Source of the DNA: a virus
Lineage: Duplodnaviria; Caudoviricetes
Direction: 5' to 3' (one strand)
DNA length: 56,095 nucleotides
Virus record (IMG/VR): IMGVR_UViG_3300038549_000050
Location: 1-56,095 of that record
The position numbers and the translations under genes are program-made. The notes below the pieces were generated by a model. That model was given only the letters and a program-made list of their open reading frames with translations. It made no database searches and was not told the origin of the DNA. Shown here one piece after another: positions 1,589 to 18,506 of the stretch (position 1 is its first letter; each line of letters starts with the position of its first letter).

Positions 1589-2146
1589 CTAAGAAACAGG
1601 CTTTACTTCCGGGTGCCGACTGTATCCGTCTTTGAGTTTCATATCGTCTATGCTTTTGACATGAAATGTGCCGCTCAGAAGTTCATTGACCGTCTTGTGC
1701 AATTGATCGCGTAAGCCGTCTTTCAGACCGCCAGTGATGTTGACGACGTGTTGTTTCATTGCGTCTTTGAAATCAGCAGCGACGAGCTGCATCATCAGCC
1801 ATTCGGCGCGTGTTGTGCCTTCCGAGTAAGTCGTTTCCTTGCCGTTACGATCAACTTTTGCATTCCAATAGTTTCCAATGAGCCTCTCCAGCTCCTTGCT
1901 GATCGTCGTCGGGTTGTCTTCGCGTTGACCCCATGAATTAACTTTACAATACTCACGTTCAAAACTGTTGCGAATGGCGTCGTCGATGGCCCCCTTGATT
2001 TGCGCATCGGCGTGTGTTTTGAAGTGAAAGTCTATCCGCCTTTTGACTTCACTGTTTATTTGTTCGGAAAGATTTTCCTCGTTAATGAAATCGGATGCAA
2101 CTTTTTCGACGATTGCATCCTCAATGCGCTCTTTGTTGATTTCCAT
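1589..2146 (-). CDS. Hypothetical phage protein (first gene of the leftward operon)
   Basis: Long ORF; AAGGAAAG RBS before ATG 2146. Confidence 0.7.
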   Translation of the reverse strand: MEINKERIEDAIVEKVASDFINEENLSEQINSEVKRRIDFHFKTHADAQIKGAIDDAIRNSFEREYCKVNSWGQREDNPTTISKELERLIGNYWNAKVDRNGKETTYSEGTTRAEWLMMQLVAADFKDAMKQHVVNITGGLKDGLRDQLHKTVNELLSGTFHVKSIDDMKLKDGYSRHPEVKPVS

Positions 2147-2274
2147 TTCAGCTTTCCTTCGGCGTTTGGCATTGGAGATGCCGGCTAAGGGGGTAACCGG
2201 CATCTCTTAGGGGGACTACAGCCAGCCTCGGCGGTGATTGGGTGAGTGGAGCCCGTCGCTGCTGACGAGATGGT

Positions 2275-2345
2275 TATTGCATATTTCCAATATCGACGCA
2301 AGCGCTATTTTTGGTGTTGACATTATTGCCAATTCCCAATATCAC
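2275..2345. promoter_or_regulatory. Divergent promoters with two TATTG-N8-CAATA operators
   Basis: Operators at 2275-2292 and 2324-2341; rightward TTGACA(2317)-17 bp-TATCAC; leftward TTGCGT-17 bp-AATAAC; each operator overlaps a promoter spacer and -10. Confidence 0.7.
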
Positions 2346-2352
2346 CTTGCCC

Positions 2353-2574
2353 ATGGATGATCAAGACTTTAAGAAGTGCGTCGAGGCGTTCCTCACCCGA
2401 CACTCAATGGCTCCGTCGAGATTCGGAGTTCTAGCGATCGGTGACAGCGCATTCGTCCTCAGGCTGCGCAACGAAAAACGCAGCCCGCGGTTAAAGACGG
2501 TATCGAGGATCTTGAAGTTCATGGCTGAGTATGAGTGTAAGCGTTGCGTTCAGCGTTGTGGATTTCCTCCCTAA
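2353..2574 (+). CDS. Cro-like HTH regulator
   Basis: FLTRHSMAPSRFGVLAIGDSAFVLRLR..RSPRLKT motif typical of alphaproteobacterial Cro-like proteins; first rightward gene. Confidence 0.75.
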   Translation: MDDQDFKKCVEAFLTRHSMAPSRFGVLAIGDSAFVLRLRNEKRSPRLKTVSRILKFMAEYECKRCVQRCGFPP

Positions 2575-2624
2575 AACTGGCGGGCAGGTCTCGCGTCCCG
2601 CCTTTTTCGCCACGAGAGAAAACA

Positions 2625-3137
2625 ATGGCTGAGGTCAAGCTCTGGACCGACGACGAAGACAAGCTGTTGGCTGAGATGTACGAGAAGGGTCTCAGCGCGT
2701 CTCAGATCGCGAAGAAAATTCCAGGCCGCAGCAGCCGGAATGCCATCATTGGACGCATCCATAGACTCAAGCTGCCGCCGAGAGCGCCGCGGCCGGTGAC
2801 CGGAAAGCGAGATGGCCTCATTGCTCGCCCGTCACGGTCTTTCCGCCAGCCTCAGCTCAGCAAAGAAGCGACGCGCATTCTTCGCGAACTCGCCGCGCAG
2901 ATGAAGGAAACGGCAACTGTGGTTGAGAAGCCAGATGTCGCTGGACCGGTGGGCGGTGTTGCTCTTCTCGACTTGACACCGTCATCTTGCCGCTGGCCGA
3001 TCAACTCGCCGCCGCGCTTCGGCGAATTTCGCTTCTGCGGCGCCCATCGAGCTGAAGGTAGGCCTTACTGTCAACGCCACGCAGATATCGCCTATACGCC
3101 CTTACATGGACGTAAACGCCGGGAAATGGCGGCATGA
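2625..3137 (+). CDS. gcrA: GcrA cell-cycle regulator homolog
   Basis: WTDDE...GLSASQIA...SRNAIIGRIHRL N-terminus; LLDL...CRWP...FCG...PYC..H C-terminus. Confidence 0.9.
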   Translation: MAEVKLWTDDEDKLLAEMYEKGLSASQIAKKIPGRSSRNAIIGRIHRLKLPPRAPRPVTGKRDGLIARPSRSFRQPQLSKEATRILRELAAQMKETATVVEKPDVAGPVGGVALLDLTPSSCRWPINSPPRFGEFRFCGAHRAEGRPYCQRHADIAYTPLHGRKRREMAA

Positions 3138-3286
3138 ACTCGCTTAAGATCCGCATGGCGGCAAAACTCTGGCGCGACGGTAAGGGCACGCTTGAGATCG
3201 CCAATTATCTCGCGGTAAAGGAAAGCGTGATTTATAATTATATCGAAATCATAAGGGCAGAAGCCAGGAGAGACAATGGCCGATAA
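3134..3286 (+). CDS. Small HTH-like protein (50 aa)
   Basis: Manual translation MNSLKIRMAAKLWRDGKGTLEIANYLAVKESVIYNYI; ATGA overlap with gcrA. Confidence 0.55.
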   Translation: MNSLKIRMAAKLWRDGKGTLEIANYLAVKESVIYNYIEIIRAEARRDNGR

Positions 3287-3551
3287 ATCCAAGATCGAAT
3301 GGCAGCCGATAGAAACCGCCCCGCGAGACGGCACCAGCGTCATTCTGGCGGTCACTGGCGGCAAAAATGGCCCAGTCGTCGGTGAAGCAAGATGGTGGGA
3401 GGAGTGGGAGGAGCACGGCGGGGATTGGTATTGGGCAGGCAATACGCCCGGCGATTATCACGGCGGGCCAATCAGCGAGATCAATTTCGGCACGCCGAGC
3501 CACTGGATGCCAATGCCCGAACCTCCGATGTCGGAGATAGCCAATGGCTGA
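3276..3551 (+). CDS. DUF551-like phage protein
   Basis: WQPIETAPRDG...PSHWMPMPEPP signature. Confidence 0.8.
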   Translation: MADKSKIEWQPIETAPRDGTSVILAVTGGKNGPVVGEARWWEEWEEHGGDWYWAGNTPGDYHGGPISEINFGTPSHWMPMPEPPMSEIANG

Positions 3552-3822
3552 TGCAGGTGCGACAATCATAGACGCTCTCAATGTGATGCCGACAGCATGG
3601 GCCCGAACTCTGATGGAGGTAGTAGCATCGGAGGGCAACAACACAGAAAAGTGCCTTCACCACCTTCAAGGGCTAACCGTTGCCGTTGCCGCGCTAACTG
3701 GCGTGCCGTGGGAGAAGCTGGCGGATGGCTTGGCGGCTCACATTGAGAATTTCAATTCTCACCTCGCAAATGCCAAGCTGGAGGCACCCGATGAGCATCT
3801 GGAGAGACGCTGCCGGCAATGA
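3544..3822 (+). CDS. Hypothetical protein
   Basis: ORF coupled to the previous gene, GGAG RBS. Confidence 0.55.
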   Translation: MADAGATIIDALNVMPTAWARTLMEVVASEGNNTEKCLHHLQGLTVAVAALTGVPWEKLADGLAAHIENFNSHLANAKLEAPDEHLERRCRQ

Positions 3823-3994
3823 GGTCGTGGTTTGCGACATGTGCGGCATCACCGAAACTGGCTGGTTCATTCATGACGCGACGGGTTTCACCAAAGTCGA
3901 CCTGACGGCAGAGATGCTTAAGGCCGGATTCCCAAAAGGCACTGAACTTCAGTGCTGTGATACATGTCCGAGCTGCGCGGGAAAAACCAGATGA
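3791..3994 (+). CDS. Small Cys-rich (zinc-binding) hypothetical protein
   Basis: CDMC...CCDTCPSC; GGAGG RBS before ATG 3791. Confidence 0.55.
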   Translation: MSIWRDAAGNEVVVCDMCGITETGWFIHDATGFTKVDLTAEMLKAGFPKGTELQCCDTCPSCAGKTR

Positions 3995-4173
3995 CCAAGC
4001 CTATAGACATAGGCGGCCACTACAAGATCACCACCACATCTGACGGTAAGACGCGGATTGTCGCGGATGAAAACTCACGGATGAAGAAGCTTGACGTCAG
4101 CACTCGTATCAAGATGAAGAAATCGAAGCGCATTCGGTACAAGCCGGCTAAATCTGTTAACAGGCCGATTTAG
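3991..4173 (+). CDS. Small basic hypothetical protein
   Basis: ATGA overlap; Lys/Arg-rich. Confidence 0.5.
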   Translation: MTKPIDIGGHYKITTTSDGKTRIVADENSRMKKLDVSTRIKMKKSKRIRYKPAKSVNRPI

Positions 4174-4281
4174 TGGATACTTGATTTTACCTATTGACAC
4201 GGTTATAGTGGATGCGGCCGGCGGAGGGAATGCGTCCCTCTGCGCCGCGCCTCAACATCAAACGCAAGGGAGTTGCGTTCC

Positions 4282-4986
4282 GTGTCTGACAACAATCTAC
4301 CTGTTTCTACCACCAAAGGCAAGCCTGTCCTTCTCCAACATGACGGCAAAATTCTCGCCGACAGCCGGGAGATCGCACTGCATTTCGAGAAGCGCCACGA
4401 TCACGTTTTGGCAAGTATCGATGCCTTGATTTCCCATTCCCCAATTCTCGGGGATGGGACTTTCATTGAAAACAAGGTGCCGCATCCGGTTATATCAGGC
4501 CGAATGGACCGGTTCTTTGAAATGAATCGCGACGGCTTCTCACTTCTCGCTATGGGGTTCACAGGATCCAGGGCTTTGAAGTGGAAGATTGATTACATCA
4601 CGGCCTTCAATCTTATGGAAGACGCTTTCAGGAAGGTCCCTGATAAGACTCCATACGCCTGGATGCGCGCTGTGGTCGACGACATGGAAGCGCAGGATAA
4701 ACGCCTGTTCAGCGTCGAGAAGTCAGTGGAGCGTATTGAGAAAGTCGTCGACAACCTCGGCGGACATGAAGATTTCATGTCAATCAAGCGTTATGCTGCC
4801 CATAAAGGACTTCGTCTATCTACGGCCAAATCGTCAGAGCTCGGGCGTCTGGCAACAAAACTAACGCGGCAGCGCAAAATGAAAATGGGCACCCAGCCCG
4901 ACGAAACATATGATCATGTCAATACCTATCACCGCGATATTCTCGCAGAGGTTTTTGAACCGCTCTTGAGGGAAACAAAGCCGTGA
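4282..4986 (+). CDS. rha: Rha-family phage regulatory protein
   Basis: DSREIALHFEKRHDHVL...MNRDGFSLLAMGFTG..ALKWKIDYITAFNLME; GGGAG RBS before GTG 4282. Confidence 0.9.
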   Translation: MSDNNLPVSTTKGKPVLLQHDGKILADSREIALHFEKRHDHVLASIDALISHSPILGDGTFIENKVPHPVISGRMDRFFEMNRDGFSLLAMGFTGSRALKWKIDYITAFNLMEDAFRKVPDKTPYAWMRAVVDDMEAQDKRLFSVEKSVERIEKVVDNLGGHEDFMSIKRYAAHKGLRLSTAKSSELGRLATKLTRQRKMKMGTQPDETYDHVNTYHRDILAEVFEPLLRETKP

Positions 4987-5175
4987 GGTTTCTTGGTCTT
5001 ACCGATGGTGTCGGTACTGCCGACGGTATCCTTTGCGGAACTACCGCAGCCGTCCAGACAAAGAAAAAGGCCTGTCAAGCAAAAACCTGACAGGCCGTGT
5101 GGCTCCCTTGCCATATGCCGATTGCCCGAAAGCCGATATAGTGAGCGCGTTTACTTAACCAGGAGATAATATCTC

Positions 5176-6183
5176 ATGCTGAAGAAAAGCGCAATTTCGA
5201 TTCTCGCCGTGCTGGCTGGAATTTCGTCGGCGCGTGCGGCTGATCCTTTTGATCGTGGCGGATTGAAAGATACGCCGGCTACCGCTGGAGAGCGCGCCGT
5301 TAGCTGGAGCGGCTTCTACATCGGCGGCCAGATCGGCTATGGCAACGCCAATCATGATCTGACGGTGCAGCGCTATAACGGCGCGTATTGCTGGGATCAG
5401 TTCGGAAATCAACTGTCTAACGACGTCAACAGCACGAAATTGGATGATTCTACGGCGCTCACTGATGGGTTGAATTTTAATTTCGGCCCTGACAGCTTCA
5501 TTAAAAGCAACAGCGGCGCAACGAATGATGGAGATCCAGTTGGCGGCCTTGTGTATGGTCGCAATGATGATGGCGACTGCACGGATACAATTTCAAATCA
5601 AACACCGGCCGTAAACGATTCAATTGCTGTCGATCCATCCAGCCGCAACATCGCCAATCTCGACGGTCTGAACAGCCACGGCATCATCGGCGGCGTCCAG
5701 GTCGGCGCTGATTACCAGATGGGCCGATTTGTCGCCGGCGTCTTTGGCTCCTACAATCTATCGGCCATGAAAAGCGAGGGCAGCCTCGCCGATTTCGACG
5801 CCGGCTTCGAGGTCGAGAAGGGCGATGAATGGTCGCTCGGTGGCCGCGTCGGCTTCCTCGCCACGCCGCGCACCATGGTCTATGCTTTGGCCGCTTATAC
5901 GCAGACCGAATATGATTTCAGCGGCTATATCGGCACTGATGTCGGCAAGAAGACGGTCGATTTCGACGGAGTTACGGTCGGCGGCGGCATCGAAGTCGCT
6001 CTGACCAACAATGTCTTCCTAGGTGCCGAATACACGCATACGTTCTACGGCGAGGAGACGATTTTTGATACCGGCGCGTCCGATGTCGGCGGCTTCGGCC
6101 ATCGCGTGATCGACGACCTCGACGAAGACAAGATCATGGCCACGCTGAAGGTCAAGCTCAACGGCGGCCTCCTGGGCGACTAA
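5176..6183 (+). CDS. Outer-membrane beta-barrel protein, Omp25/RopB-like, with a large inserted loop
   Basis: Sec signal ending ARA-AD; GGLKD; SWSGFYIGGQIGYG; GGVQVGADYQMG; GGRVGF; GGGIEVAL...LGAEYTH. Confidence 0.85.
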   Translation: MLKKSAISILAVLAGISSARAADPFDRGGLKDTPATAGERAVSWSGFYIGGQIGYGNANHDLTVQRYNGAYCWDQFGNQLSNDVNSTKLDDSTALTDGLNFNFGPDSFIKSNSGATNDGDPVGGLVYGRNDDGDCTDTISNQTPAVNDSIAVDPSSRNIANLDGLNSHGIIGGVQVGADYQMGRFVAGVFGSYNLSAMKSEGSLADFDAGFEVEKGDEWSLGGRVGFLATPRTMVYALAAYTQTEYDFSGYIGTDVGKKTVDFDGVTVGGGIEVALTNNVFLGAEYTHTFYGEETIFDTGASDVGGFGHRVIDDLDEDKIMATLKVKLNGGLLGD

Positions 6184-8252: not shown

Positions 8253-8480
8253 TCAGGAGCGTTCGGTGGATTTCGTGATAACCATCTTGCGGGTAACTCC
8301 TGACCCGACAATTTTTCGCTTGATCGCACCCATCTTCTCCAGGGCGTCAATCGTGCGCATTTCTATACCAAGACGGGGGCGCCAACCATTACCGTAAATC
8401 TTGGCGTAAATATGCAGGGGGCCTCGCTCAAGCTCTTCCATGACGCGAGCCTGCGCGAATGACATTTTTTTCTGCGGCAT
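8253..8480 (-). CDS. Left-array cassette 8: small basic hypothetical protein
   Basis: GGAGG RBS; ends within junction motif (KSTERS*). Confidence 0.65.
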   Translation of the reverse strand: MPQKKMSFAQARVMEELERGPLHIYAKIYGNGWRPRLGIEMRTIDALEKMGAIKRKIVGSGVTRKMVITKSTERS

Positions 8481-8510
8481 AGCGCCCTCCGGGCGTTAGG
8501 TGGATAAGAT

Positions 8511-8711
8511 TCAGTCAATTTCGTTCGGCCGAACCCTGCCGCGCCCATTGCACATAGGACAGCAGACAGTCCTGATCTTCTTCGTATTCAGGCGCTCAAG
8601 ATGATACTGGACGACAGATGGAGATGATATGTCGCAAGCTGCCTGAATGGCCCGTACTGTGGCCTCTGGGTGTCGCTCTACGTAGGCGGCGATCCTTTCG
8701 CGAGTGGTCAT
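8511..8711 (-). CDS. Left-array cassette 7: LexA-type winged HTH plus CxxCxGxG motif
   Basis: ATVRAIQAACDISSPSVVQYHLERL resembles the LexA DNA-binding domain; CPMCNGRG; GGAG RBS before ATG 8711. Confidence 0.7.
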   Translation of the reverse strand: MTTRERIAAYVERHPEATVRAIQAACDISSPSVVQYHLERLNTKKIRTVCCPMCNGRGRVRPNEID

Positions 8712-8737
8712 GTTCGCTCCGGGACGTTGGTTGGATT

Positions 8738-9352
8738 TTACGACAGCGGAATTTCTTCGGGCGATGCGAAGCCGAACATCGGCAGGAAAAAGAATGGTTG
8801 CCCACACTCGCGCATGACTGAAGCGCCCTGGATTTCTGAATAGGCCAAGGCGGCGTCCCAAGCGGCGTCCAAGGCGGCGTTCCAGGCGGCGGCGGCGGCG
8901 GAGGAGGCGGCGGCGTTCCGGGCGACGTCCCGGGCGGCGTTTCGGGCGGCGATCACTTTCTGCCAATCCTCGTGCGTCATGCGATCAATGTGTTTCCAGA
9001 ACGCGAGGATGATATGCGCCTGATCTCCGAGGATTTTCTCGGGATTGGTCAGCACGATTGACGGCGCACCGTCGACGCTGTCGTTCACGCGCCGCAATAT
9101 GACCGCATGCGCAATGCTGATGCCCAGGAGCTTTGCCGTTTCCTTGTCGGCTTCGCGCTGTTCGGTTCCGTTCAGCTTGCGCGGCGACCAGCCACCAAGC
9201 AAATGGAGCACCTGCCCCTGTGCGCACATGCAGCCGATATTGGTCGGCGGCTCCTCCCCGTCGCCCTCATACTCGCTCCAGTCGATGAGCCGGCCTTTGT
9301 AAGGCTTTCCTTCATTGCTGTCCCAGAGCGAGATAAGTTCTTTAAGTTCCAT
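8738..9352 (-). CDS. Left-array cassette 6: hypothetical protein with an Ala/Trp (AARNAA/AAWDAA) repeat
   Basis: 204-aa ORF; 12-bp GCC-rich repeats near 8845-8950. Confidence 0.75.
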   Translation of the reverse strand: MELKELISLWDSNEGKPYKGRLIDWSEYEGDGEEPPTNIGCMCAQGQVLHLLGGWSPRKLNGTEQREADKETAKLLGISIAHAVILRRVNDSVDGAPSIVLTNPEKILGDQAHIILAFWKHIDRMTHEDWQKVIAARNAARDVARNAAASSAAAAAWNAALDAAWDAALAYSEIQGASVMRECGQPFFFLPMFGFASPEEIPLS

Positions 9353-9393
9353 TAGGATATTCCTTCGGGTCTGTGGGTGGGCGTTAGGTGGAT

Positions 9394-9753
9394 TCAGACT
9401 TGGTGCGTGCCTTCGACGCCGCGCGCCATGCGCTCACGGGTGCGCGAAAGCAGCTCCGCTTGAGCCGTCTGCAGATGGAACAGCGCCGACGCATTCGCCT
9501 CGCAGGCGTAGGGGCCGGCCTGGAAGCCTTCGAGGCGATCCATCAGAATTGCCAGCAACGCCTCGTGAGTGATGCCATTCACGCCGGCCTCATTGATCGG
9601 CCCGTTCTGGAACGAGAGGCGCACGCCGCTGCCGTCCGGAAGGGCGATCTCATATTCGTGGGAAGCGCCGCCGGGGCCGGGGCCGTCCAGAGCGCTCACG
9701 CGCAGTACGTCGTTGGCGGGGTTGACTTTGTGGACGGTAAGCTCTCTGCGCAT
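9394..9753 (-). CDS. tad1: Left-array cassette 5: Tad1-like anti-defence nucleotide sponge
   Basis: GPGGASHEYEI...FQNGP...GVNG...LLAILMDRLEGFQAGPY...NA.AL.H...RTRERMARGVEGT parallels the Tad1 family along its whole length. Confidence 0.85.
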   Translation of the reverse strand: MRRELTVHKVNPANDVLRVSALDGPGPGGASHEYEIALPDGSGVRLSFQNGPINEAGVNGITHEALLAILMDRLEGFQAGPYACEANASALFHLQTAQAELLSRTRERMARGVEGTHQV

Positions 9754-9800
9754 GATTTTCTCCGTTGGTGGGCGGTTGATGGATTCAGATTGGAGGCCGC

Positions 9801-10406
9801 TTAGGCGGCCTCCTCCTCGTCGTCTTCTCTCGGGAAAATTCGACTTTCCCAATCGTCCGGGAGCTCGTTGAGCGGCAGCGTTCCGACGAGGGCGACCGGA
9901 TAGTATTGTGCAGCGCGGCGCTCTTTCTCAAAGGGCAGCGATGCATAACGCCCCTTCTCGTGCGGCTCCTTCTGAAAGCCGCGATAGAATTCCAGAACAC
10001 CGTCATCGAGATTGATGATGTAGGCATATTCGCAGAACAGGCTGTCGCCCATGAAGGCTTCGCCGCCCTCCTCCATGAACTCCGCTTCGATGTAGTCTTC
10101 GATGTCGCCCTGCATCTTGCGAGAGAGAACATAAACCTCGGCCACATCGCGAGTGCTGACGCTGGTGTCGGCATACTTCTTGAGCTTTTCGATAAGCTCC
10201 GGAGTAGCGCGCTGGTCTTGTGGCCACATTTGAATGGCGCGCGCCTTGGTCTTGAGCCAGTCCATGCCGCGTTCTGGATCGCCCAAAATGTTGCGAACCG
10301 CCGCTACCACGTCAGCGCCGAGGCCGTCCGGATAGCTGTCGAAATGGTTGTAAGTGGCCTTGGTCTTGCCGTCGATAAAGACGCCGAGCGCTCCGCGCGT
10401 TCCCAT
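9801..10406 (-). CDS. Left-array cassette 4: conserved phage hypothetical protein
   Basis: MGTRG...YNHFDSYPDGLG...EYAYIINLD motifs common in phage early proteins. Confidence 0.75.
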   Translation of the reverse strand: MGTRGALGVFIDGKTKATYNHFDSYPDGLGADVVAAVRNILGDPERGMDWLKTKARAIQMWPQDQRATPELIEKLKKYADTSVSTRDVAEVYVLSRKMQGDIEDYIEAEFMEEGGEAFMGDSLFCEYAYIINLDDGVLEFYRGFQKEPHEKGRYASLPFEKERRAAQYYPVALVGTLPLNELPDDWESRIFPREDDEEEAA

Positions 10407-10448
10407 GGTGTTTTCTCCTCGGTTGATAGGTGGGGCGTTAGGTGGATT

Positions 10449-10691
10449 TCAGTCTTCGTCGTCCATGTCAATGCCGCAGTGGCGGCAGATGTAGCCAGAG
10501 CCGTCTTCATAAACGCGCTCGTGGGCGTTGCAGGTCAGTACGAACTTTTCCAGTCCAAGTCGCTCAACTTCGGCGTCGCATGTGCGCATATCCTGCCCGC
10601 GCCGAAATGGATCGTTCTGCTCGCGACGCCGCTGCAAGAGGCAAGCACCATCGCAGGTAATGCAATCAAAATTGGTCACAGGACATTGCAT
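10449..10691 (-). CDS. Left-array cassette 3: Cys-rich hypothetical protein
   Basis: CP...CITC...C and C.HE...CRHCG; GGAG RBS. Confidence 0.65.
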   Translation of the reverse strand: MQCPVTNFDCITCDGACLLQRRREQNDPFRRGQDMRTCDAEVERLGLEKFVLTCNAHERVYEDGSGYICRHCGIDMDDED

Positions 10692-10706
10692 AAGGCGCTC
10701 CGGGCG

Positions 10707-11021
10707 TTAGATGGATTTGGGTTGCTTCTGAAGAGACGCCGCCAGTTTCTCGGCTTCCTCCTCGCTAATTTCGTCGATGCCGAACGCGCCTTGTTCGACA
10801 GCCGTAAGCACGGCTTTATCGATGACGCGGTGAAGGGGCGTCGTGCCTTCTTCGTTTTCGTCATTCAGCGCGCGGCAAAGGTCCTTGGCGAACCCGCCTG
10901 AGTCCGTGACCTTCAATGGCGGCAAGGCGTTGCACGCCCATCCGCCGCTCACGATGACCGGCAATGCCGAGATATCCAACCGGATGATGATTTGGTCGCC
11001 CTCAATTTTTGCTTCGCTCAT
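10707..11021 (-). CDS. Left-array cassette 2: hypothetical protein
   Basis: Stop codon lies inside the junction motif (PKSI*); GGAG RBS. Confidence 0.7.
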   Translation of the reverse strand: MSEAKIEGDQIIIRLDISALPVIVSGGWACNALPPLKVTDSGGFAKDLCRALNDENEEGTTPLHRVIDKAVLTAVEQGAFGIDEISEEEAEKLAASLQKQPKSI

Positions 11022-11056: not shown

Positions 11057-11269
11057 TCAACGAACTTCAATAGGGTAATCAGTCGGAACGAGTATAGAAT
11101 CGCGCTTGGCGGTCTCAATTGAGACCATGCCCCGATACAGCTTCTCGCTCACATCCCAGACTTCGCGATACCAGCCCGTTTCCGGGTCTTTGATGCGGGC
11201 CTCGTCATATCCGTCTTCCGGATCTTCTCCGAGACGGTATTGATCAGCGGTGATTTTGCGCCATGGCAT
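11057..11269 (-). CDS. Left-array cassette 1: hypothetical protein
   Basis: GAGGAG RBS; first gene left of the divergence. Confidence 0.65.
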   Translation of the reverse strand: MPWRKITADQYRLGEDPEDGYDEARIKDPETGWYREVWDVSEKLYRGMVSIETAKRDSILVPTDYPIEVR

Positions 11270-11341
11270 ATTGCGATCTCCTCTTGACGCAATGCTCTTC
11301 GCATGTCAGAGTACTCAAGTCAATCACAAAGCGCAGACTAT

Positions 11342-11791
11342 ATGCCCGAAAATACCAGAACGTGGGGCTACATCCTTAGAACGCCCCGCACGCCGACACT
11401 GAAAAAGCAGTTGGAAATCTTGGCGCACTTGCGACTGGACACGCACGAGACCGGCCCGGTTTGGCGCGACGTGCTCGACAAGATCCCACGCGGCCCCAAG
11501 ACCGAAGAGACCGTGTTGGCAATGCGGGGCGACTTGCTGGAGATTGCCGAGCCTGGCGATTGCGTCGCGGTCGCAAGCCCTGCTTGCCTTGGCGTCTCGG
11601 CGGAGGATGCGCGCGCGTTCATCCTCGCGCTTCAGCGTAAGGGTGTGCGGCTGATGGTGTGGGACGAGTGTTGGAGCATTCAACCTGACGGCGACCCGAG
11701 CGAGCTGATCGCAGAGGTGAAGCGGCGCCATAATCGCGAGTACCAGCGCCGATCACGCGCCAAGGCAAGAAAACGTAAATCTCAATCCTAA
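11342..11791 (+). CDS. Degenerate serine-recombinase (resolvase) catalytic domain without HTH
   Basis: WGYILRT..Q...VWRD...LL...PGDCVAVAS...LGVSAED...L..KGVRL followed by an E-helix-like AEVKRRHNREYQRRSRAKAR; canonical YxRVS and DRLGR are altered. Confidence 0.7.
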   Translation: MPENTRTWGYILRTPRTPTLKKQLEILAHLRLDTHETGPVWRDVLDKIPRGPKTEETVLAMRGDLLEIAEPGDCVAVASPACLGVSAEDARAFILALQRKGVRLMVWDECWSIQPDGDPSELIAEVKRRHNREYQRRSRAKARKRKSQS

Positions 11792-11806
11792 TGGAGCAAC
11801 TATGCA

Positions 11807-12079
11807 ATGATTGAGGGAGTGTTGGTTCCAATGAAGGTCTGGCGGCCAGACGAAAGCGTTATCACCGTTGTGTGGATCGCTGGCGCTGAAGATCACTACG
11901 GCAATCTTGTTGCGGAAAACAGGCTTTCAAAAGAAGAATACTGGCCGCGTCTATACCGAGACGCGCGAGCAGACGAATCGCGCGTTCGCGGGCTTTATCT
12001 CACGCTGCGCGACGAAGTCGAAAAATGCGCCTACCGTCGCGCATGGGAAACGCTTTACCTCGACTACATGCAATCCTAA
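11807..12079 (+). CDS. Right-array cassette: hypothetical protein
   Basis: Ends QS* in the motif; start could be 11831. Confidence 0.6.
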   Translation: MIEGVLVPMKVWRPDESVITVVWIAGAEDHYGNLVAENRLSKEEYWPRLYRDARADESRVRGLYLTLRDEVEKCAYRRAWETLYLDYMQS

Positions 12080-12089
12080 TGGAGCCAAA

Positions 12090-12395
12090 ATGAGGTACTT
12101 AAGCGAAGAGCAAAAAGACGCATCTTTGCTGGCTTTGCGGTTGCTGAGTAGCGCTCGTGTGCGAGAGAGGAACGCAGATTACAACCGCCGCTTGACTGAT
12201 GCTCGCCGAGTGGCAGACGGCCTTTCGCCTGCCGAGATCATAGAACAATTGATCGCGCACAATCCAGCCTACATCCGGACCTTACTTGAAACCGAAGATG
12301 CCCGCTTTGGGACGGGCTCTTTGCGGGAGAGATACGCTCGCACCTTCGCAAATCAGCAGCTTTCCAAGGGAGCAACCAATGCAGACATGGAATAA
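12090..12395 (+). CDS. Right-array cassette: hypothetical protein
   Basis: ATG follows the junction RBS; reads through a degenerate junction at 12361. Confidence 0.65.
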   Translation: MRYLSEEQKDASLLALRLLSSARVRERNADYNRRLTDARRVADGLSPAEIIEQLIAHNPAYIRTLLETEDARFGTGSLRERYARTFANQQLSKGATNADME

Positions 12396-12600
12396 AGGCG
12401 AACCCCTCGCGAGCGTCGAAGTTGCTTGGCTACGGATCGAAGAGCCTGACGGTGATGGCGGTTGTTCCCTAAAAGTCGTCCTCGCCGTTCATGATGGCGA
12501 ATGGTGGTCTGAAGCCGGAGACTACAAAGGCGAAAGCTACACAGATCGCATTGATGGCAACATCACCGGATGGCTGCCGTTTGAAATCCCGTCCACCTAA
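12379..12600 (+). CDS. Right-array cassette: hypothetical protein (DUF551-like ITGWLP end)
   Basis: GGGAG RBS; ends PST* in the motif. Confidence 0.6.
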   Translation: MQTWNKGEPLASVEVAWLRIEEPDGDGGCSLKVVLAVHDGEWWSEAGDYKGESYTDRIDGNITGWLPFEIPST

Positions 12601-12612
12601 GGAGGCTGCGTG

Positions 12613-12762
12613 ATGCCAAGCAACCGGACATTGGGCTGGCTTTGGCTTGTGACCATGGCCGCTATGATTTCCACATTCGGCCTGACGGGGCAGAGAATGT
12701 TTTTAGAAATTGCGCTGGCTGGCGGGATAGGCTTTTTCGTCGGCCGCCTGCCTCAATCCTAA
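12613..12762 (+). CDS. Right-array cassette: 49-aa two-TM membrane protein
   Basis: Manual translation MPSNRTLGWLWLVTMAAMISTFGLTGQRMFLEIALAGGIGFFVGRLPQS*; exactly fills the gap between two junctions. Confidence 0.65.
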   Translation: MPSNRTLGWLWLVTMAAMISTFGLTGQRMFLEIALAGGIGFFVGRLPQS

Positions 12763-12770
12763 TGGAGCGA

Positions 12771-12941
12771 ATGATGCCGATATGCGTCGAGGTTGACGGA
12801 CAATTTGAAACTCGGGAAGAAGCATCGCAAGCGCTGCGCGAGGCAGCCCGCATGGTTGATTCGGGCATGTGGATCGCTTCGCAGCCGAGCCGGGCAAACC
12901 CGATGATCTTTATCACCGAAGTGGACGAAGACGAATCCTAA
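12771..12941 (+). CDS. Right-array cassette: small acidic protein
   Basis: Between junctions; ends ES*. Confidence 0.6.
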   Translation: MMPICVEVDGQFETREEASQALREAARMVDSGMWIASQPSRANPMIFITEVDEDES

Positions 12942-12952
12942 AGGAGCGGCCT

Positions 12953-13285
12953 ATGACCGCAATAACTGAGGAGTGGCTTGCTTCGGTCGGGTTCAAATAC
13001 CGTGACCCATTAGAACGCCAGCCGTTCCGGCACTGGAAGCTCACTTTCAACGAGCCGGACGACTATGGGCTTTATCTTGAAACCACGATGCCGGGGTGGC
13101 TGAACGGCGCGGGCGAACACGTCAACGCAGATGGCGGCTGGTTTCTGTGGGTGGGGCGCGAGAGCCATTATTTTCATCTGCGCCATGTCCACGAACAGTC
13201 TGAGATTGTCGCCCTTGTAGAGGCGCTGACAGGGTTGCCGTGGGAGCCAACGAAGATGGGCAATGTGCTCGTGAAGAAATCCTAA
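12953..13285 (+). CDS. Right-array cassette: hypothetical protein
   Basis: MTAITEEWLASVGF...; ends KS*. Confidence 0.7.
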   Translation: MTAITEEWLASVGFKYRDPLERQPFRHWKLTFNEPDDYGLYLETTMPGWLNGAGEHVNADGGWFLWVGRESHYFHLRHVHEQSEIVALVEALTGLPWEPTKMGNVLVKKS

Positions 13286-13296
13286 AGGAGGGGAAG

Positions 13297-13671
13297 ATGA
13301 GGAGAATTGAAAACCCAATGGATGACTTTCGGAATCGAAAGGTCACCTATGAGTTGGATGACGGCAGGCGAGTAGACGTAGACCCGCGCCTAATTCAGGA
13401 AATTGGCCTCCGAAAGGTCATGGAGAGACTTGGCGTCGAGATGCCAGCCGAGCGAATTCCTGTCTTCCATCATGGTGAGCGCGTCGGCACGGTGCCAGCC
13501 GAGTTCGATCCGGCGTTCATCAAGTCGAAGAGCTTCTTTTACGATCCGCGCCCTGGTGATTTCACCCGAATAGCCGAGGGCTGGCAGGTCAGTCACACGA
13601 TGGGACCGGGCGACGTTGCGTCGGTTCCTGGCTTCCAGGCTGAAGTGCGAACGCATCGTGAGCACTGGTAG
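13297..13671 (+). CDS. Right-array cassette: hypothetical protein
   Basis: ATG after the junction RBS. Confidence 0.65.
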   Translation: MRRIENPMDDFRNRKVTYELDDGRRVDVDPRLIQEIGLRKVMERLGVEMPAERIPVFHHGERVGTVPAEFDPAFIKSKSFFYDPRPGDFTRIAEGWQVSHTMGPGDVASVPGFQAEVRTHREHW

Positions 13672-13698
13672 AAACACGATCCAGAAAGGGAGGGAGCG

Positions 13699-13917
13699 AT
13701 GAAACGGAGACAGCGCCTGATCACGGTATGCGATGCCTGCCTGCGGGCATCGTGCTGGCACATGACTTTCCCGTGCCAGGATCACCAAACTGCCGGCACC
13801 ACGAAGAAAACAGCGCGAGAGCTGCGCAAGCTGGATCTGGAGCACCTGGACCATTACAGCCGCAAGGAAGTCGAGCGCGTCTGCGGCGGAACTGAATACG
13901 CAACACCGTCCATCTAG
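13699..13917 (+). CDS. Right-array cassette: Cys/His-rich small protein
   Basis: CDAC..SCW...C...LEH; ends PSI* in the motif. Confidence 0.65.
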   Translation: MKRRQRLITVCDACLRASCWHMTFPCQDHQTAGTTKKTARELRKLDLEHLDHYSRKEVERVCGGTEYATPSI

Positions 13918-13928
13918 GGAGCATTTGA

Positions 13929-14117
13929 ATGCAATCAGCACCTCTTAGTGGTCTCCGCGGCGAAAGCCCGCGCGACTCTTGGCAAAGGCAATACATCCGC
14001 AACGCCCTTGCAGCCCTCGGCCAGGTCAAGACGGAAGACAAGACGCTGGCAGAACACCTTCTGGCCGCAGAGCAGGCGCTGCGCAAGGCCGGCTCGTATC
14101 TCGACAGCAAATCCTAA
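13929..14117 (+). CDS. Right-array cassette: small helical protein
   Basis: Ends KS* in the motif. Confidence 0.6.
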   Translation: MQSAPLSGLRGESPRDSWQRQYIRNALAALGQVKTEDKTLAEHLLAAEQALRKAGSYLDSKS

Positions 14118-14128
14118 AGGAGCGGCCT

Positions 14129-15152: not shown

Positions 15153-16340
15153 ATGAGCTACCTTATCTCATCGCAAGCGGGTACGCAAGAAGAAAAATTA
15201 ATTCCTTCCTCAAATTCGCAAGGAGCTGAGGTCATTCCCTTCACTGGCTCCCGAGATGTTGTGTCAAGAGGCGAGATTGCTGATGCAGTCAAGCTCTGGA
15301 GACTCGAACGCGACCTGTCTGATGCGCTGACGCGGCAAGAAATCGGGGCGATGAGGATGCTTGACCGCATCGATGCCCAACGCAAGGCGCTCATCATAGG
15401 CTTTGCCGAATATCTTCGCAAGCATGAACGCTCTGATGTCGCCATGGGCGTGTATCTCGTATCGGTGCTCATGAGTGATAACGATCAGGGCATGTCTACG
15501 GTTTCACAGCCGACACTGGCGAAACTGTTTAAGCGGTCCGTGTCATCGATTGCCGATGCTCAGCGGCGGCTTCGCGAGGATAAGCTCATCACCATGTCGC
15601 GAGGCAGGAAGGCCGGAACGGTCCCGGTAATACCGCGCTTTGTCGCCAAGCAGTACAACCATCTGACGTGGGTTCTAGCGGCGCTTTGTGATGACGCGGC
15701 CCCCGTTAATCATCTACTCCCACCGGATGATTGTCAATCATCCGGCCAGACCGGATGTATTTCGAAATCCCTAGGCGGGACCGGATGTATTCCGAATGGA
15801 AATCATCCGGTCGAGGCTCCGGAAATCATCCGGCCGGACCCTATGCAATTTCAGTCTTCTAATTCAACTATATTGGAGAAAGCGGTTTCAGCCGTCGCGG
15901 TCGGCCTAGCATCGACGCTTGCCGTCATGCCGGCGGCTGCTAAACCAGAAGACCCCCCTGCCATCGTTCTGAAGGCAAAGCCATCTCTGGCGGAGATGTC
16001 AGACCGAATGATGAGGGCCAGCGGAAAAGCTCTCGCAAGCCCGGCGACGAATCCGTCGCTTCTGGTCATGTCGGAACTTCAATGCTGGCTTTCGAACGGT
16101 TGCGATTTCGAACTCGATATCATACCGACGATCGAGGCGATCTCGCGCCGCGCCAATGGCGGATCGATCGGGACATGGCGGTACTTTACGAAGGCGATAG
16201 CCAATGCGAAGGCAACCAGGCTGGCGCCGATGCCGGCTGGCGAAGCACAAACAAAAACACGGCCAAGCTGGCGTCCAAAAACCAAGGACGAAATGACCCT
16301 CGAAGAACTCCAAATCCATTACGACCGAGGCGGGGTCTGA
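15153..16340 (+). CDS. Phage replication initiator (central HTH, DnaD-like C-terminus)
   Basis: VSQPTLAKLFKRSVSSI HTH; WRYFTKAI C-terminal motif; directly upstream of the helicase; contains iterons; start uncertain. Confidence 0.7.
   Translation: MSYLISSQAGTQEEKLIPSSNSQGAEVIPFTGSRDVVSRGEIADAVKLWRLERDLSDALTRQEIGAMRMLDRIDAQRKALIIGFAEYLRKHERSDVAMGVYLVSVLMSDNDQGMSTVSQPTLAKLFKRSVSSIADAQRRLREDKLITMSRGRKAGTVPVIPRFVAKQYNHLTWVLAALCDDAAPVNHLLPPDDCQSSGQTGCISKSLGGTGCIPNGNHPVEAPEIIRPDPMQFQSSNSTILEKAVSAVAVGLASTLAVMPAAAKPEDPPAIVLKAKPSLAEMSDRMMRASGKALASPATNPSLLVMSELQCWLSNGCDFELDIIPTIEAISRRANGGSIGTWRYFTKAIANAKATRLAPMPAGEAQTKTRPSWRPKTKDEMTLEELQIHYDRGGV
15723..15876. repeat. Probable replication origin: six CCGGATG/CATCCGG iterons plus an AT-rich tract
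   Basis: Copies at 15723, 15737, 15750, 15780, 15798 and 15821 in both orientations, followed by AT-rich 15845-15875. Confidence 0.65.
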
Positions 16341-17737
16341 TGTCGCTTGAGCTCTACAACGAGCGTGCTGAACAGATCGTGCTCGCCACGGTGCTTTTCG
16401 ATGCCGACAGCCTGCATGCCATCGGAGAGCTTCGAGCTGACGACTTCGTGCATTTTTTTCATGCCGACGTGTTCCGCTACATGGTCGCCGAAGTCCAGGC
16501 GGGACGCAAACCGACTGCGGTAAGCGTTGGGCATTTCGTCTCCGGGCATAATCTGGACGGTATATCCGCGCAGCAATATCTGACCAATCTTGCAGCCTTG
16601 CGGGACCGCCAGACGCTTCGCGAGATGATCGCCCTCATCAAGGGACTGTCAGCCCGCCGGGCAATGATCCAGATCGGCGTTGGATTGCAGGAGCATGGTG
16701 CTTTGAGCGATAGCCCGCCGCGGCAAATGTGCTTGGACGCGGTTCGGGCCCTAAACGACGTCTTGGCGATGGAGCGCAAGCCGGCTCCGGCTGCGCAGTT
16801 CATCGGCGAAATCGCTGAACATCTGGTGGCGTCGCTTGATTTGCCTGACGATGACAGCTTCATCTCGACTGGCCTGAGGACGCTTGACCGTTTCATAGGC
16901 GGCTGGCCGCGCGGGGAACTCTCGATGGTTGCCGGCCGGCCATCCATGGGCAAGAGCGCCCTTCTCAGCGCCTTGGCGCGCCGCGGGGCACGACAGGGAA
17001 AGAACATGATGATTTTCTCCCTAGAGATGCCGCGCAAGGCGCTCGCGGCGCGCATGATGTCGGATTATGCCTACGGGGCCCGTGAAGACCAACGCATCCC
17101 CTATGCCGATATTCTGCGTCGCCGGATCGAGCCGCACCAGAAGGAACGCCTCAAGGTCGCGGCGCGCGCGTTTGGTGATTATCCGCTGAAGATCGACGAT
17201 CAACGCGGCCTGACAATGCCTGAGATTCACATCAGGGCACTGCGCTATGCCGATGAGCTCGACAAGCAGGGGAAGCGCCTCGATGTCGTTATGGTGGATC
17301 ATGTCGGAAAGGTCCGCTCCAGCGACCGCTACAAAGGCAATGTCACAGCGGAAACGACGGAGAAGTCAGACGCCCTGATGGTATCTGCCTACGAACTCGA
17401 CGCGGCTGTCGTCGCGGCCTGCCAACTCAACCGAGGGCCTGAGGGACGGGAGGACAAACACCCTGGCCCGGCCGATCTGCGCGATAGCGGAGCGCTTGAA
17501 CAGGATGTCAATACGCTGCTTTTTCCCTATCGTCCAGCGTATTACCTTGAACGGCAGAAGCACGATGATCTAGAAAAGGATAGAATACGTATTAATGCGT
17601 TGGAAAAGAAAAAAAATTTGATGGAAATTCTCGTATCGAAGAGTAGAAATGGAGCGTGCGGAAATGTTGATTTGTTTGTCGACATCGCTTCCAATCATGT
17701 CGAAGATCTAGCGCAGGAGGTCTACGGTGTTTCTTGA
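16340..17737 (+). CDS. dnaB: DnaB-like replicative helicase
   Basis: AGRPSMGKS Walker A, FSLEM, VMVDH, CQLNR, DLRDSGALEQD, KSRNG. Confidence 0.95.
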   Translation: MSLELYNERAEQIVLATVLFDADSLHAIGELRADDFVHFFHADVFRYMVAEVQAGRKPTAVSVGHFVSGHNLDGISAQQYLTNLAALRDRQTLREMIALIKGLSARRAMIQIGVGLQEHGALSDSPPRQMCLDAVRALNDVLAMERKPAPAAQFIGEIAEHLVASLDLPDDDSFISTGLRTLDRFIGGWPRGELSMVAGRPSMGKSALLSALARRGARQGKNMMIFSLEMPRKALAARMMSDYAYGAREDQRIPYADILRRRIEPHQKERLKVAARAFGDYPLKIDDQRGLTMPEIHIRALRYADELDKQGKRLDVVMVDHVGKVRSSDRYKGNVTAETTEKSDALMVSAYELDAAVVAACQLNRGPEGREDKHPGPADLRDSGALEQDVNTLLFPYRPAYYLERQKHDDLEKDRIRINALEKKKNLMEILVSKSRNGACGNVDLFVDIASNHVEDLAQEVYGVS

Positions 17738-18506
17738 CGCAGCTCTTGATCTTTGTCAATTTTCATTCAAGGTCTTCCCATTGCTTCCAGGAGAGAAGAC
17801 GCCGGCTATCTCCAGCAAAAAGGGCGGCAAGGGTTGCCTCGATGCAACTGATGATGAGGAGATTATAGCTGGATGGGCCAAGCGGTTCCCCAGGGCCAAC
17901 ATCGGAATTCATTGCGGCGAGGCATCCGGGATCGTGGTGATCGATCTAGATCCACGGAATGGATCGGACGCATCCGTCGCCGAGCTTGCCAAGCGCAGGC
18001 AGACATTTTTGCCGACAGCGACAGTTAGAACAGCCAATGGCGGGACCCATCTCTATTACGCTTTTGAGCCGTCGATCAAGAATTCCAAATCCGTCCTCGG
18101 CGCTGGCATCGATGTGAAAACGACGGGAGGCTATGTTGTTGCGCCGCCGTCGCGTCTTAGCTCTGGAAAAAACTATGCCTGGATCAACAGGCCGATGAGC
18201 GAGAACCTGCCGCGCTTGCCTCATTGGGTTGTCCAGGCACTGCGTCCAAAGCCGCAGCCCATCGTTGCCTACGATCAGAGCAGAGCACCGAAGGACATCA
18301 AGAAACTAACTGAATTCCTTGCTATGTCAGGCGAAGGTTCGCGGAACAATATCCTGTTTTGGGCAGCCTGCCGTCTTGCGGAGAGCGGACAGCTCAGCCC
18401 GACGAACGAAACGGTGCTCATAAATGCCGCTGTGTCCGCTGGTCTCAATCGCGTCGATGCACAGAAGACCGTGGTGAGCGCAGGAAAGAAAGGAAAACAT
18501 GTATGA
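17727..18506 (+). CDS. Bifunctional DNA primase/polymerase (Prim-Pol) with C-terminal PriCT-like domain
   Basis: VFPL...KTP, NIGI, VIDLD, TANGGTHLYY, GIDVK..GGYVVAPPS; G.RNN.LF..AC. Confidence 0.9.
   Translation: MFLDAALDLCQFSFKVFPLLPGEKTPAISSKKGGKGCLDATDDEEIIAGWAKRFPRANIGIHCGEASGIVVIDLDPRNGSDASVAELAKRRQTFLPTATVRTANGGTHLYYAFEPSIKNSKSVLGAGIDVKTTGGYVVAPPSRLSSGKNYAWINRPMSENLPRLPHWVVQALRPKPQPIVAYDQSRAPKDIKKLTEFLAMSGEGSRNNILFWAACRLAESGQLSPTNETVLINAAVSAGLNRVDAQKTVVSAGKKGKHV

Follow-up and report, generated by a model that had tools for sequence, protein, structure and literature searches.

Introduction

The closest described relatives of the protein dealt with here are serine recombinases of the resolvase/invertase group, i.e., the gamma-delta and Tn3 (TnpR) resolvases, Sin, and the invertases Hin and Gin, in which a catalytic domain (PF00239) with a long E helix is combined with a helix-turn-helix (HTH) domain (HTH_7). 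In resolvases, residues S10, R8, D67, R68 and R71 have catalytic roles, and the HTH is needed for sequence-specific binding. The subject of this work is P0001, a protein of 149 amino acids (aa) encoded on the plus strand at positions 11342-11791 of the IMG/VR virus record IMGVR_UViG_3300038549_000050 (Duplodnaviria; Caudoviricetes). The whole record, of 56,095 bp and estimated to be 93% complete, was analysed and is referred to below as the window. P0001 shares with the above-mentioned enzymes the catalytic fold and the long E helix, and the family to which it belongs very probably derives from the catalytic domain of serine recombinases and has been conserved in a catalytically inert form.

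The likeness extends to the equivalents of resolvase GY, Q19, D36, G58-D59, L69-G70 and D75, which are retained in the P0001 family as they are in gamma-delta/Tn3 and Hin/Gin, and to a symmetric dimer formed through the E-helix region, which is predicted for P0001. The position of the gene is also comparable, as tnpR lies at a divergent promoter region by res. Unlike resolvases and invertases, however, the P0001 family lacks (i) the serine nucleophile; (ii) residues R8, D67, R68 and R71; (iii) the C-terminal HTH; and (iv) a res-like site. Also unlike resolvases, its members are found in phages that carry a tyrosine integrase (above the cut-off in three of five other near-complete virus records with a family member) or none. 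Because these defining catalytic and DNA-binding features fail despite a common fold and ancestry, the family should not be annotated as a recombinase.

Among annotated phages, the same family is represented by gp42 of Aurantimonas phage AmM-1 (YP_009146979.1, "hypothetical protein"), an uncharacterised protein of the same size that is 37% identical over 86% of the query and whose neighbours are unrelated to those in the window. The ESM Atlas holds clusters of HTH-less proteins of similar length (115-150 aa), from bacteria and viruses, labelled "Resolvase, N-terminal domain-containing"; at a similarity of 0.83-0.86 they are leads only, and most of them match PF00239 in 91-100% of their members and look canonical.

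Two further types of phage protein are relevant for comparison. Phage GIY-YIG endonucleases (phrog_16880 and phrog_3312) and GIY-YIG cores of the T5orf172 type have the same core as several relatives of P0001, but not P0001 itself. Cores of this kind are usually joined to a separate DNA-binding domain such as, for instance, KilA-N or Bro-N; in the GIY-YIG relatives of P0001, the resolvase-like domain stands in the place of that module. Cro/CI-type early regulators are likewise small, basic and dimeric (the dimer of P0001 being a model) and likewise come first at a divergent early control region. Unlike them, P0001 has neither an HTH nor a ribbon-helix-helix fold, and no operator was found near its gene, only a single non-significant dyad (11270-11293).

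Serine recombinases have been studied and engineered as enzymes, while inactive, domesticated derivatives are well known for transposases and kinases. Full-text literature searches, with subscription journals outside their scope, returned no description of an inactive, HTH-less serine-recombinase family, nor of a GIY-YIG fusion to one. One retrieved article (PMC3710099) concerns Holliday-junction resolvases and is irrelevant here.

A Resolvase-Like Fold

By sequence alone, the resolvase likeness of P0001 is marginal. The Pfam Resolvase profile matches it with an E-value of 6e-4 and 20.3 bits, below the gathering cut-off of 23.3, over profile positions 54-143 only, and the same profile matches 12 of 33 family members at E <= 0.1. 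No other Pfam domain and no nuclease domain were found in P0001. A phmmer search of PDB sequences with the single protein returned nothing; a profile built from the 33 full-length members reached Tn3 resolvase (E 2.2e-5) and gamma-delta resolvase (E 4e-5).

The model predicted by AlphaFold2 (AF2) from a 56-row alignment has a predicted local distance difference test score (pLDDT) of 94 and a predicted template-modelling score (pTM) of 0.87; a single-sequence model was poor (pLDDT 56.7) and was set aside. When the model was compared with the PDB by Foldseek, the top match was gamma-delta resolvase (1zr2_A; E 3.9e-8, TMq 0.72, 144 columns including the E helix), followed by Tn3, Sin, Gin and large serine integrases, and among the matches listed of the 33 at E <= 1e-3, all are serine recombinases; the identity of P0001 to solved resolvases is 16-20%. 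The viral structure library BFVD agrees with the PDB, with A0A0A8ILD0 (137 aa, TM 0.87) as its top match; this entry is probably AmM-1 gp42. In consequence, the alpha/beta fold of the resolvase catalytic domain, together with its long E helix, is confirmed for P0001 at the level of the predicted structure.

An earlier note on this DNA, made from its letters alone, had proposed a serine-recombinase fold without a C-terminal HTH and had named a Foldseek comparison with gamma-delta resolvase as a check. Both proposals held: the comparison places gamma-delta resolvase first, and no HTH was found in P0001, either fused or split off, as the chain ends after the E helix and the next ORF (open reading frame; 11807-12079) has no Pfam match. 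The motifs quoted in that note (GYILRT, PGD.V.V, ACLGV, GV.L and a basic E helix) are all present in ORF 11342-11791, GV.L being the GVRL of residues 101-104.

A Conserved Family with a Rewritten Active Site

Relatives were collected by an exhaustive HMMER search of 1.84 billion cluster representatives at E <= 1e-3. It gave 62 representative matches, mostly of 120-157 aa, of which about four are spurious and three canonical-like. Four proteins matched in multiple stretches (P0047, P0049, P0059 and P0061) were rejected as members and kept out of the alignments; the two that were inspected, P0047 and P0049, are repeat proteins. Two alignments were used: A1, with 33 full-length members, and A2, with 56 rows, from which P0034 and P0060 were also left out. 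Other searches were less productive. A word-index homologue search with the single P0001 returned only itself, and one with the family alignment, aimed at longer lengths, returned nothing, which is weak evidence given that the known 331-aa member P0019 was likewise missed. A search with P0001 alone found no viral relative, whereas a sub-alignment (A3) did find related loci.

No Pfam family above its cut-off, and no NCBIfam, PHROG or PADLOC family, covers the group. Against the PHROGs, P0001 has only a non-significant match (E 0.13), and two other members have no PHROG family. In their sources, the relatives are labelled either "hypothetical protein" or [quoted passage not shown]. A product identical to the 149 aa of P0001 is already present in the protein collection.

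The HMMER alignment between the P0001 family and gamma-delta resolvase has no gaps at either active-site motif, so that columns can be compared one by one (counts are from A1 unless stated otherwise). The first motif, GYILRT (residues 9-14, strand beta-1; 11366-11383), aligns with gamma-delta GYARVS. Its G9 and Y10 correspond to resolvase G5-Y6 and are kept in 33/33 and 32/33 sequences, respectively; L12 stands in the column of R8 and is leucine in all 33. The column of the nucleophile S10, occupied by T14 in P0001, contains 15 glycines, 12 alanines, four methionines and two threonines, and serine in 0/33; in A2, it holds A21 G16 M5 T3 R1 W1 with eight gaps, and again no serine (0/56). At the second motif, ACLGV (residues 81-85; 11582-11596), which aligns with D67-R68-L69-G70-R71, the D67 column (A81) is variable (Y/L/F/E/T/A/W), R68 is replaced by C82 (cysteine in 31/33 and, in A2, in 50/56), and the R71 column (V85) contains V/L/I/A/M/F. 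L83 (26/33) and G84 (31/33) keep L69-G70, and the D72 column is S86 (serine in 27/33).

Residues of the second shell, by contrast with those of the catalytic set, are kept. Besides the tyrosine, these are the glutamine equivalent to Q19 (Q23, 33/33), and the equivalents of D36 (D43, 32/33), D59 and D75 (D89, 32/33). G58-D59 corresponds to G72-D73 (31/33 and 29/33) within PGDCVAV (residues 71-77, strand beta-3; 11552-11572). Other positions are newly conserved: W8, L12, a PGRP loop, R62, P80, C82, S86, W/F92-F93, and an RxQN stretch that opens the E helix. In the PGRP loop, arginine at position 17 and proline at position 18 are each found in 32/33. P0001 is slightly atypical here, with PRTP (residues 15-18; 11384-11395), i.e., Arg16-Thr17 where the family has Gly16-Arg17, and its Arg13 and Thr14 are lineage-specific.

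The loss of the nucleophile and of the arginine triad is thus, judging from the alignments, a property of the whole family and not just of P0001. G9, L12 and Q23 are invariant and conservation reaches at least 90% in 12 more columns, although the sequences share no more than 26-45% identity with P0001; because these columns persist at such identities, pseudogene-like decay is ruled out, and a pseudogene or decaying copy is likewise rejected by the intact ORF. These results bear out the rewritten active site that the earlier note had read from GYILRT and ACLGV: the alignment of homologues that it called for shows the Thr/Ser and Arg columns replaced throughout and other positions under constraint. 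Neither of the two outcomes that the note had named as refuting it, a fold other than that of resolvases or pseudogene-like decay among homologues, was seen. A reading of the conserved aspartates as a PIN-like metal nuclease was also considered and rejected, as the Asp columns are inherited from canonical resolvases.

The most distant matches, P0062, P0050 and P0054, form the outgroup in a quick tree, the only tree used, in which most forks are weak (a careful tree search was unfinished). P0062 retains GYVRVS and an arginine in the R68 column and matches a DNA-invertase PHROG; because of this outgroup sequence, the family looks derived from ordinary recombinases.

Predicted Dimer and Basic E Helix

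When two copies of P0001 were modelled together, the prediction passed, with an ipSAE of 0.57 (runs of 0.61, 0.57 and 0.57) against 0.00 for the best of three controls. The runs have at least 94% of their contacts in common and a partner pLDDT of at least 78. In the calibration of the method, 20 of 30 proteins solved as pairs came up to this mark, against 1 of 23 solved as single chains. The predicted interface lies within residues 80-133; it takes in 80-98, 100-117, 119 and, in the first half of the E helix, residues that include 122-123, 125-127, 129-131 and 133. The models thus support a homodimer like that of resolvase, held together by beta-4/beta-5 and the E helix. Some of the rewritten 80-87 segment contacts the E helix of the partner, and because of this modelled contact the conservation of the segment would have a structural reason.

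The E helix and basic tail (residues 120-148; 11699-11785), which are helical in the model and whose N-terminal half takes part in the predicted interface, have a net charge of +9 in P0001. Across the family, the mean net charge from residue 120 onward is +5.4, with 28/33 members at +4 or more, and the globular part is about neutral. Such a basic helix and tail would fit nucleic-acid binding.

Nuclease Fusions in Relatives

Ten family matches of at least 200 aa were scanned with Pfam. Six of them (P0010, P0021, P0029, P0031, P0033 and P0037) carry a C-terminal GIY-YIG domain, five at E <= 4e-4 and P0031 at E 0.02; the match is above the Pfam cut-off in two of the six. P0019 (331 aa) carries NUMOD4 and HNH, the complete architecture of a homing endonuclease, and PADLOC matches it to "HEase". 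P0057 can be aligned with P0031 from end to end and, hence, is counted among the nuclease-bearing relatives. P0008 and P0012 showed no additional Pfam family, and the tenth match scanned is the rejected repeat protein P0047. The fused genes are single open frames in the four loci where they were seen as DNA (L004, L005, L007/L016 and L015).

In P0010, P0021 and P0033, the GIY-YIG part covers only positions ~4-85 of the 162-175 of the phage endonuclease PHROGs, so that, as far as these profiles tell, the C-terminal GIY-YIG parts tested consist of the bare nuclease core and bring no DNA-binding domain with them. Because only the N-terminal core is matched, the resolvase-like part occupies the place of the other domain of those endonucleases. 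P0034 (226 aa) is built differently, as a chimera of an N-terminal GIY-YIG core, an unmatched middle and an end that corresponds to about the last 50 residues of the family and comprises only beta-4, beta-5 and the E helix. This end is 62% identical to residues 97-135 of P0001 and has the same ...KRKSQS C-terminus, which suggests that P0034 comes from a close relative of the window phage in which the front of the gene has been replaced.

In the quick tree, from which P0034 was absent, six of the seven C-terminal fusions cluster together (end branches of 0.7-1.2), with a weak Shimodaira-Hasegawa-like approximate likelihood ratio test (SH-aLRT) value of 81, and P0019 lies elsewhere. Given that P0019 is apart in the tree and that P0034 has its core at the N-terminus, at least three separate nuclease fusions are counted. 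It is mainly on account of these separate fusions that the domain is read as a dimerising, DNA-directed module.

A small gene with a ribbon-helix-helix-like product lies directly upstream of, and partly overlaps, every GIY-YIG-fused member seen in DNA (L004 5744-5989, L005 ~5060-5258, L007 ~5780-5935 and L015 4768-4929). The products have the motif ...KPVNTTLPPDLL..LD.WI...PVPPSRSAVI.AAL..FL; the fold was assigned by eye. The ORFs of L004 and L005 have no NCBIfam match, and that of L004 no PHROG match. By analogy, this layout recalls a regulator/nuclease or an antitoxin/toxin pair.

Position of the Gene Across Loci

Gene sharing was compared in ten loci (the window, AmM-1 and eight IMG/VR loci). 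The resolvase-like gene is the only one common to all ten, and nearly all its neighbours differ. Gene positions were taken from a crude ORF picker based on GC content at third codon positions (GC3) and from the annotation of AmM-1; L006/L014 and L007/L016, which have identical ORF patterns, were counted once each, which leaves 14 distinct loci.

In 6 of the 14 (the window, L001, L006/L014, L009, L010 and L011), the gene directly follows a minus-strand gene, with a gap of 21-163 bp. In four more, the ribbon-helix-helix-like gene is directly upstream of the family member; that gene follows a strand switch in L004, L005 and L007/L016, and one further small plus-strand ORF intervenes in L015. A strand switch lies within ~400 bp of the family gene in L003, L008 and L012, and L013 (1/14) was not assigned to any of these classes. 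In the annotated genome of AmM-1, gp42 is the first gene past the divergent junction.

In several loci, the family gene lies within 1-4 kb of a tyrosine integrase. In L014, a weak tyrosine-integrase match (24.1 bits against a cut-off of 27.1) is found ~3 kb away. In L003 (6001-8230), the family member heads a run of genes on the same strand that ends, ~0.8 kb downstream, in a tyrosine integrase (an ORF of 341 aa; PF00589, 75.7 bits in the record), which links the gene to the lysogeny module in at least the L003 phage. A canonical Pfam Resolvase gene was found in none of six records, i.e., the window and the five other near-complete virus records with a family member. Since none of the six encodes one, the resolvase-like protein is not the partner or regulator of a phage-encoded serine recombinase.

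Proposed Role and Alternative Explanations

The explanation that accounts best for these data, to which a probability of roughly 0.55 is given, is that P0001 is a dimer of the resolvase type whose basic E helices bind nucleic acid, and that it serves as an early regulatory or architectural factor on its own and as the targeting and dimerising half in the fused nucleases. According to this model, (i) a serine-recombinase catalytic domain with its E helix would have been exapted, and would no longer cut or rejoin DNA by the serine mechanism; (ii) two copies would join, much as in resolvase, by way of strands beta-4/beta-5 and the E helix to give a homodimer; (iii) the dimer would offer two strongly basic E-helix tails, most likely for nucleic-acid binding; (iv) the gene would be transcribed first in the rightward early operon of an alphaproteobacterial phage; (v) the protein would act by binding and not by catalysis, its stand-alone form being an early regulatory or architectural DNA-binding dimer; and (vi) in the GIY-YIG and HNH fusions, the module would supply dimerisation and DNA targeting. 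The earlier note had listed, as one of three options, a dead and repurposed DNA-binding or regulatory protein; this option is the best supported, by residue loss, constraint, the dimer model and the basic helix.

Several observations weigh against this explanation. P0001 contains no DNA-binding domain of a known type, whether a C-terminal HTH_7, an N-terminal MerR-like domain, or the large recombinase or zinc-ribbon domains. The upstream regions of the loci have, by eye, no operator-like motif in common, and the perfect dyad ATTGCG-N12-CGCAAT upstream of the gene was rejected as an operator, as it occurs once in the window and 14 of 100 shuffles also yield one. The dimer pass may partly reflect a memory of solved resolvase dimers in the prediction model. 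In the four fused loci, where a ribbon-helix-helix-like gene lies upstream, regulation need not be the task of the resolvase-like domain. Homing-endonuclease genes may simply have inserted next to the sole conserved gene in the case of the HNH fusion and possibly in other cases. Finally, the conserved polar residues R17, D43, D73, C82, S86 and D89 would line the old pocket and could mean a new ligand or catalytic site.

If the domain does bind or pair DNA without cutting, it would show which properties of resolvases (dimerisation, E-helix docking, synapsis) can be reused without catalysis. A function could also be assigned to a gene that Rhodobacterales and Hyphomicrobiales phages have conserved in early regions that are otherwise mosaic, and the fused proteins might be compact nucleases that work as dimers and have a new type of targeting module. 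If the domain is no more than a scaffold, "inactive resolvase-like domain", and not recombinase, is still a useful annotation. A more far-reaching version, in which P0001 would be the founding example of a "pseudo-recombinase" that keeps the pairing and DNA-docking geometry while its active site has been rebuilt (Leu12, PGRP, Cys82, Ser86) into a new functional one, acts as an early regulator in temperate alphaproteobacterial phages and, when fused, provides a new class of nucleases with the half that targets and dimerises, and perhaps synapses two sites, is doubtful as a whole.

Of the alternatives, the one that survives best, unlikely as it is, gives the protein a non-DNA role on a host protein, for example in early take-over or anti-defence, with the fusions as landings of selfish homing endonucleases. 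First genes of early operons are often take-over genes, a sole gene conserved in all ten loci is an obvious homing target, and P0019 has the complete NUMOD4+HNH architecture and the PADLOC "HEase" match. Nevertheless, the GIY-YIG parts tested against the PHROGs are bare cores that lack a DNA-binding domain, the clade of C-terminal fusions has kept its nuclease as it diversified (six of seven cluster in the quick tree, with end branches of 0.7-1.2), and the basic character of the helix and tail is conserved.

It is improbable, too, that the old pocket (Leu12, Arg17 of the PGRP loop, Cys82, Ser86, Asp89, Asp43 and Asp73) has become a new active or ligand site, for instance with a cysteine nucleophile or for a phosphate or nucleotide. 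By sequence position, the family-specific conserved residues do fall mainly in the three stretches from which the active site of resolvase is built, and the cysteine is kept in 50/56 sequences. However, no known Cys-enzyme motif was recognised by eye, the part of 80-87 in the predicted interface offers a structural reason for conservation, and P0001 itself, with PRTP, lacks the near-invariant Arg17.

A decoy function, which the earlier note had raised as a dominant-negative inhibitor of recombinases, is very improbable. Active serine recombinases encoded by the host, by resident prophages or by defence islands would be drawn by the protein into mixed dimers or tetramers, and their excision, inversion or integration would thereby be blocked early in infection. 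The retention of the dimer-forming beta-4/beta-5/E-helix region along with the loss of all catalytic residues, the early position of the gene and the fact that the family profile still recognises canonical resolvases are compatible with this idea. But the absence of Pfam Resolvase genes from all six records deprives it of a phage-encoded target, so that only host or rival-element enzymes would be left as foreign ones; the identity to solved resolvases of 16-20% and the family-specific interface residues make mixed dimers look unlikely; and the nuclease fusions are left unexplained.

The last option of the earlier note, a divergent recombinase for the junction motifs, is not supported and is hardly credible. 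Such an enzyme would still be active and would recombine the stop codon/ribosome-binding site (RBS) motifs by means of Thr14 or some other nucleophile, thereby shuffling small early genes. Although Thr14 stands exactly in the Ser10 column, and the gene lies between two arrays of such motifs with a related array in L014, threonine is found in that column in only 2/33 (A1) or 3/56 (A2) sequences and serine in none, the whole arginine set (R8, R68 and R71) has gone, an HTH is missing, none of the 15 other fetched loci contains the exact motifs, and a stop codon plus a Shine-Dalgarno sequence explains them.

The Junction-Motif Arrays

The arrays themselves are real, and the earlier note was right to place the gene at their hub, i.e., at the strand switch between them. 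On the plus strand, ATCCTAAWGGAG occurs in six copies (11785-14122); on the minus strand, ATCCACCTAACGCC, with up to two mismatches, occurs in five copies (8258-10716). Neither count was reached in any of 100 shuffles. Each motif ends one small gene with its TAA stop codon and supplies, with GGAG, the RBS of the next; in the first rightward copy, ATCCTAATGGAG (11785-11796, plus strand), the stop codon is that of the P0001 gene. The small proteins of the arrays end in -Ser or -Ser-Thr.

Exact copies were found in 0/15 other fetched loci, 14 of which have a family member. L014, a Pseudooceanicola prophage, has a variant of its own, ATCCAGCTAACC, in six copies (up to two mismatches) on the minus strand (1886-4621), a count reached in 0/200 shuffles; all four copies that were checked against ORF ends overlap stop codons. 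Probably, the motifs are a translational-coupling or gene-cassette boundary signal common to these phages. They are not plausible substrates of the resolvase-like protein because its active site is dead, and no res-like arrangement of repeats was seen around the gene.

A different repeat lies within the region of the leftward array. In window 8825-8963, inside the minus-strand ORF 8738-9352, nine overlapping GGCGGCGTCC-like copies form a 12-nt periodic repeat. Its translation, AAAWNAALDAAWDAALA, is a repeat rich in Ala, Trp and Asp within an early protein of 204 aa, for which the sole match is a PHROG of unknown function.

The Gene, Its Flanks and the Source Record

The coding sequence, which ends in a TAA stop, is taken to start at 11342, in agreement with the N-terminal ends of homologous proteins (MPQNPKTWGY in P0002). 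With an in-frame ATG at 11303, the gene would be longer by 13 codons (11303-11341), which are probably untranslated; 11342 is the likelier start because the homologues have just 2-11 residues ahead of WGY. The ATG at 11342 lacks an upstream Shine-Dalgarno sequence, in contrast to the starts of the downstream genes. The divergent intergenic region (11270-11341) contains the above-mentioned dyad (11270-11293), which overlaps a TTGACG hexamer (11283-11288); a promoter scan of the window returned no consensus site on the plus strand. On the other side lies the first gene of the leftward array (11057-11269, minus strand), which encodes 70 aa without a family match.

Upstream of the early region, the window encodes a GcrA-like protein (2544-3137) and a Rha regulatory protein (4273-4986), and further on a DnaB helicase (16082-17737) and a primase-polymerase (17727-18506). 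Neither a tyrosine integrase nor a canonical Resolvase match was found in the record, and megablast of window 1-25000 against annotated phages gave zero matches. A terminase, a P22-type portal, a lysozyme and one tRNA-Pro are also recognisable.

The GcrA-like gene points to an alphaproteobacterial host. Relatives of the P0001 gene come from the Rhodobacterales and Hyphomicrobiales, where phages and prophages carry them (Alloyangia, Salipiger, Pseudooceanicola, Antarcticimicrobium, Leisingera, Hoeflea and Aurantimonas phage AmM-1); prophage copies are present in, among others, Pseudooceanicola nanhaiensis DSM 18065 and Alloyangia pacifica DSM 26894, and one more family copy is in a metagenome-assembled genome labelled Mycobacterium.

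Two other genes of the window may be mentioned. A 335-aa protein (5176-6183) weakly matches an outer-membrane beta-barrel, and L009 encodes a homologue with 38% identity to it; a gene with a polysaccharide-lyase domain (24072-24809) may encode a capsule depolymerase.

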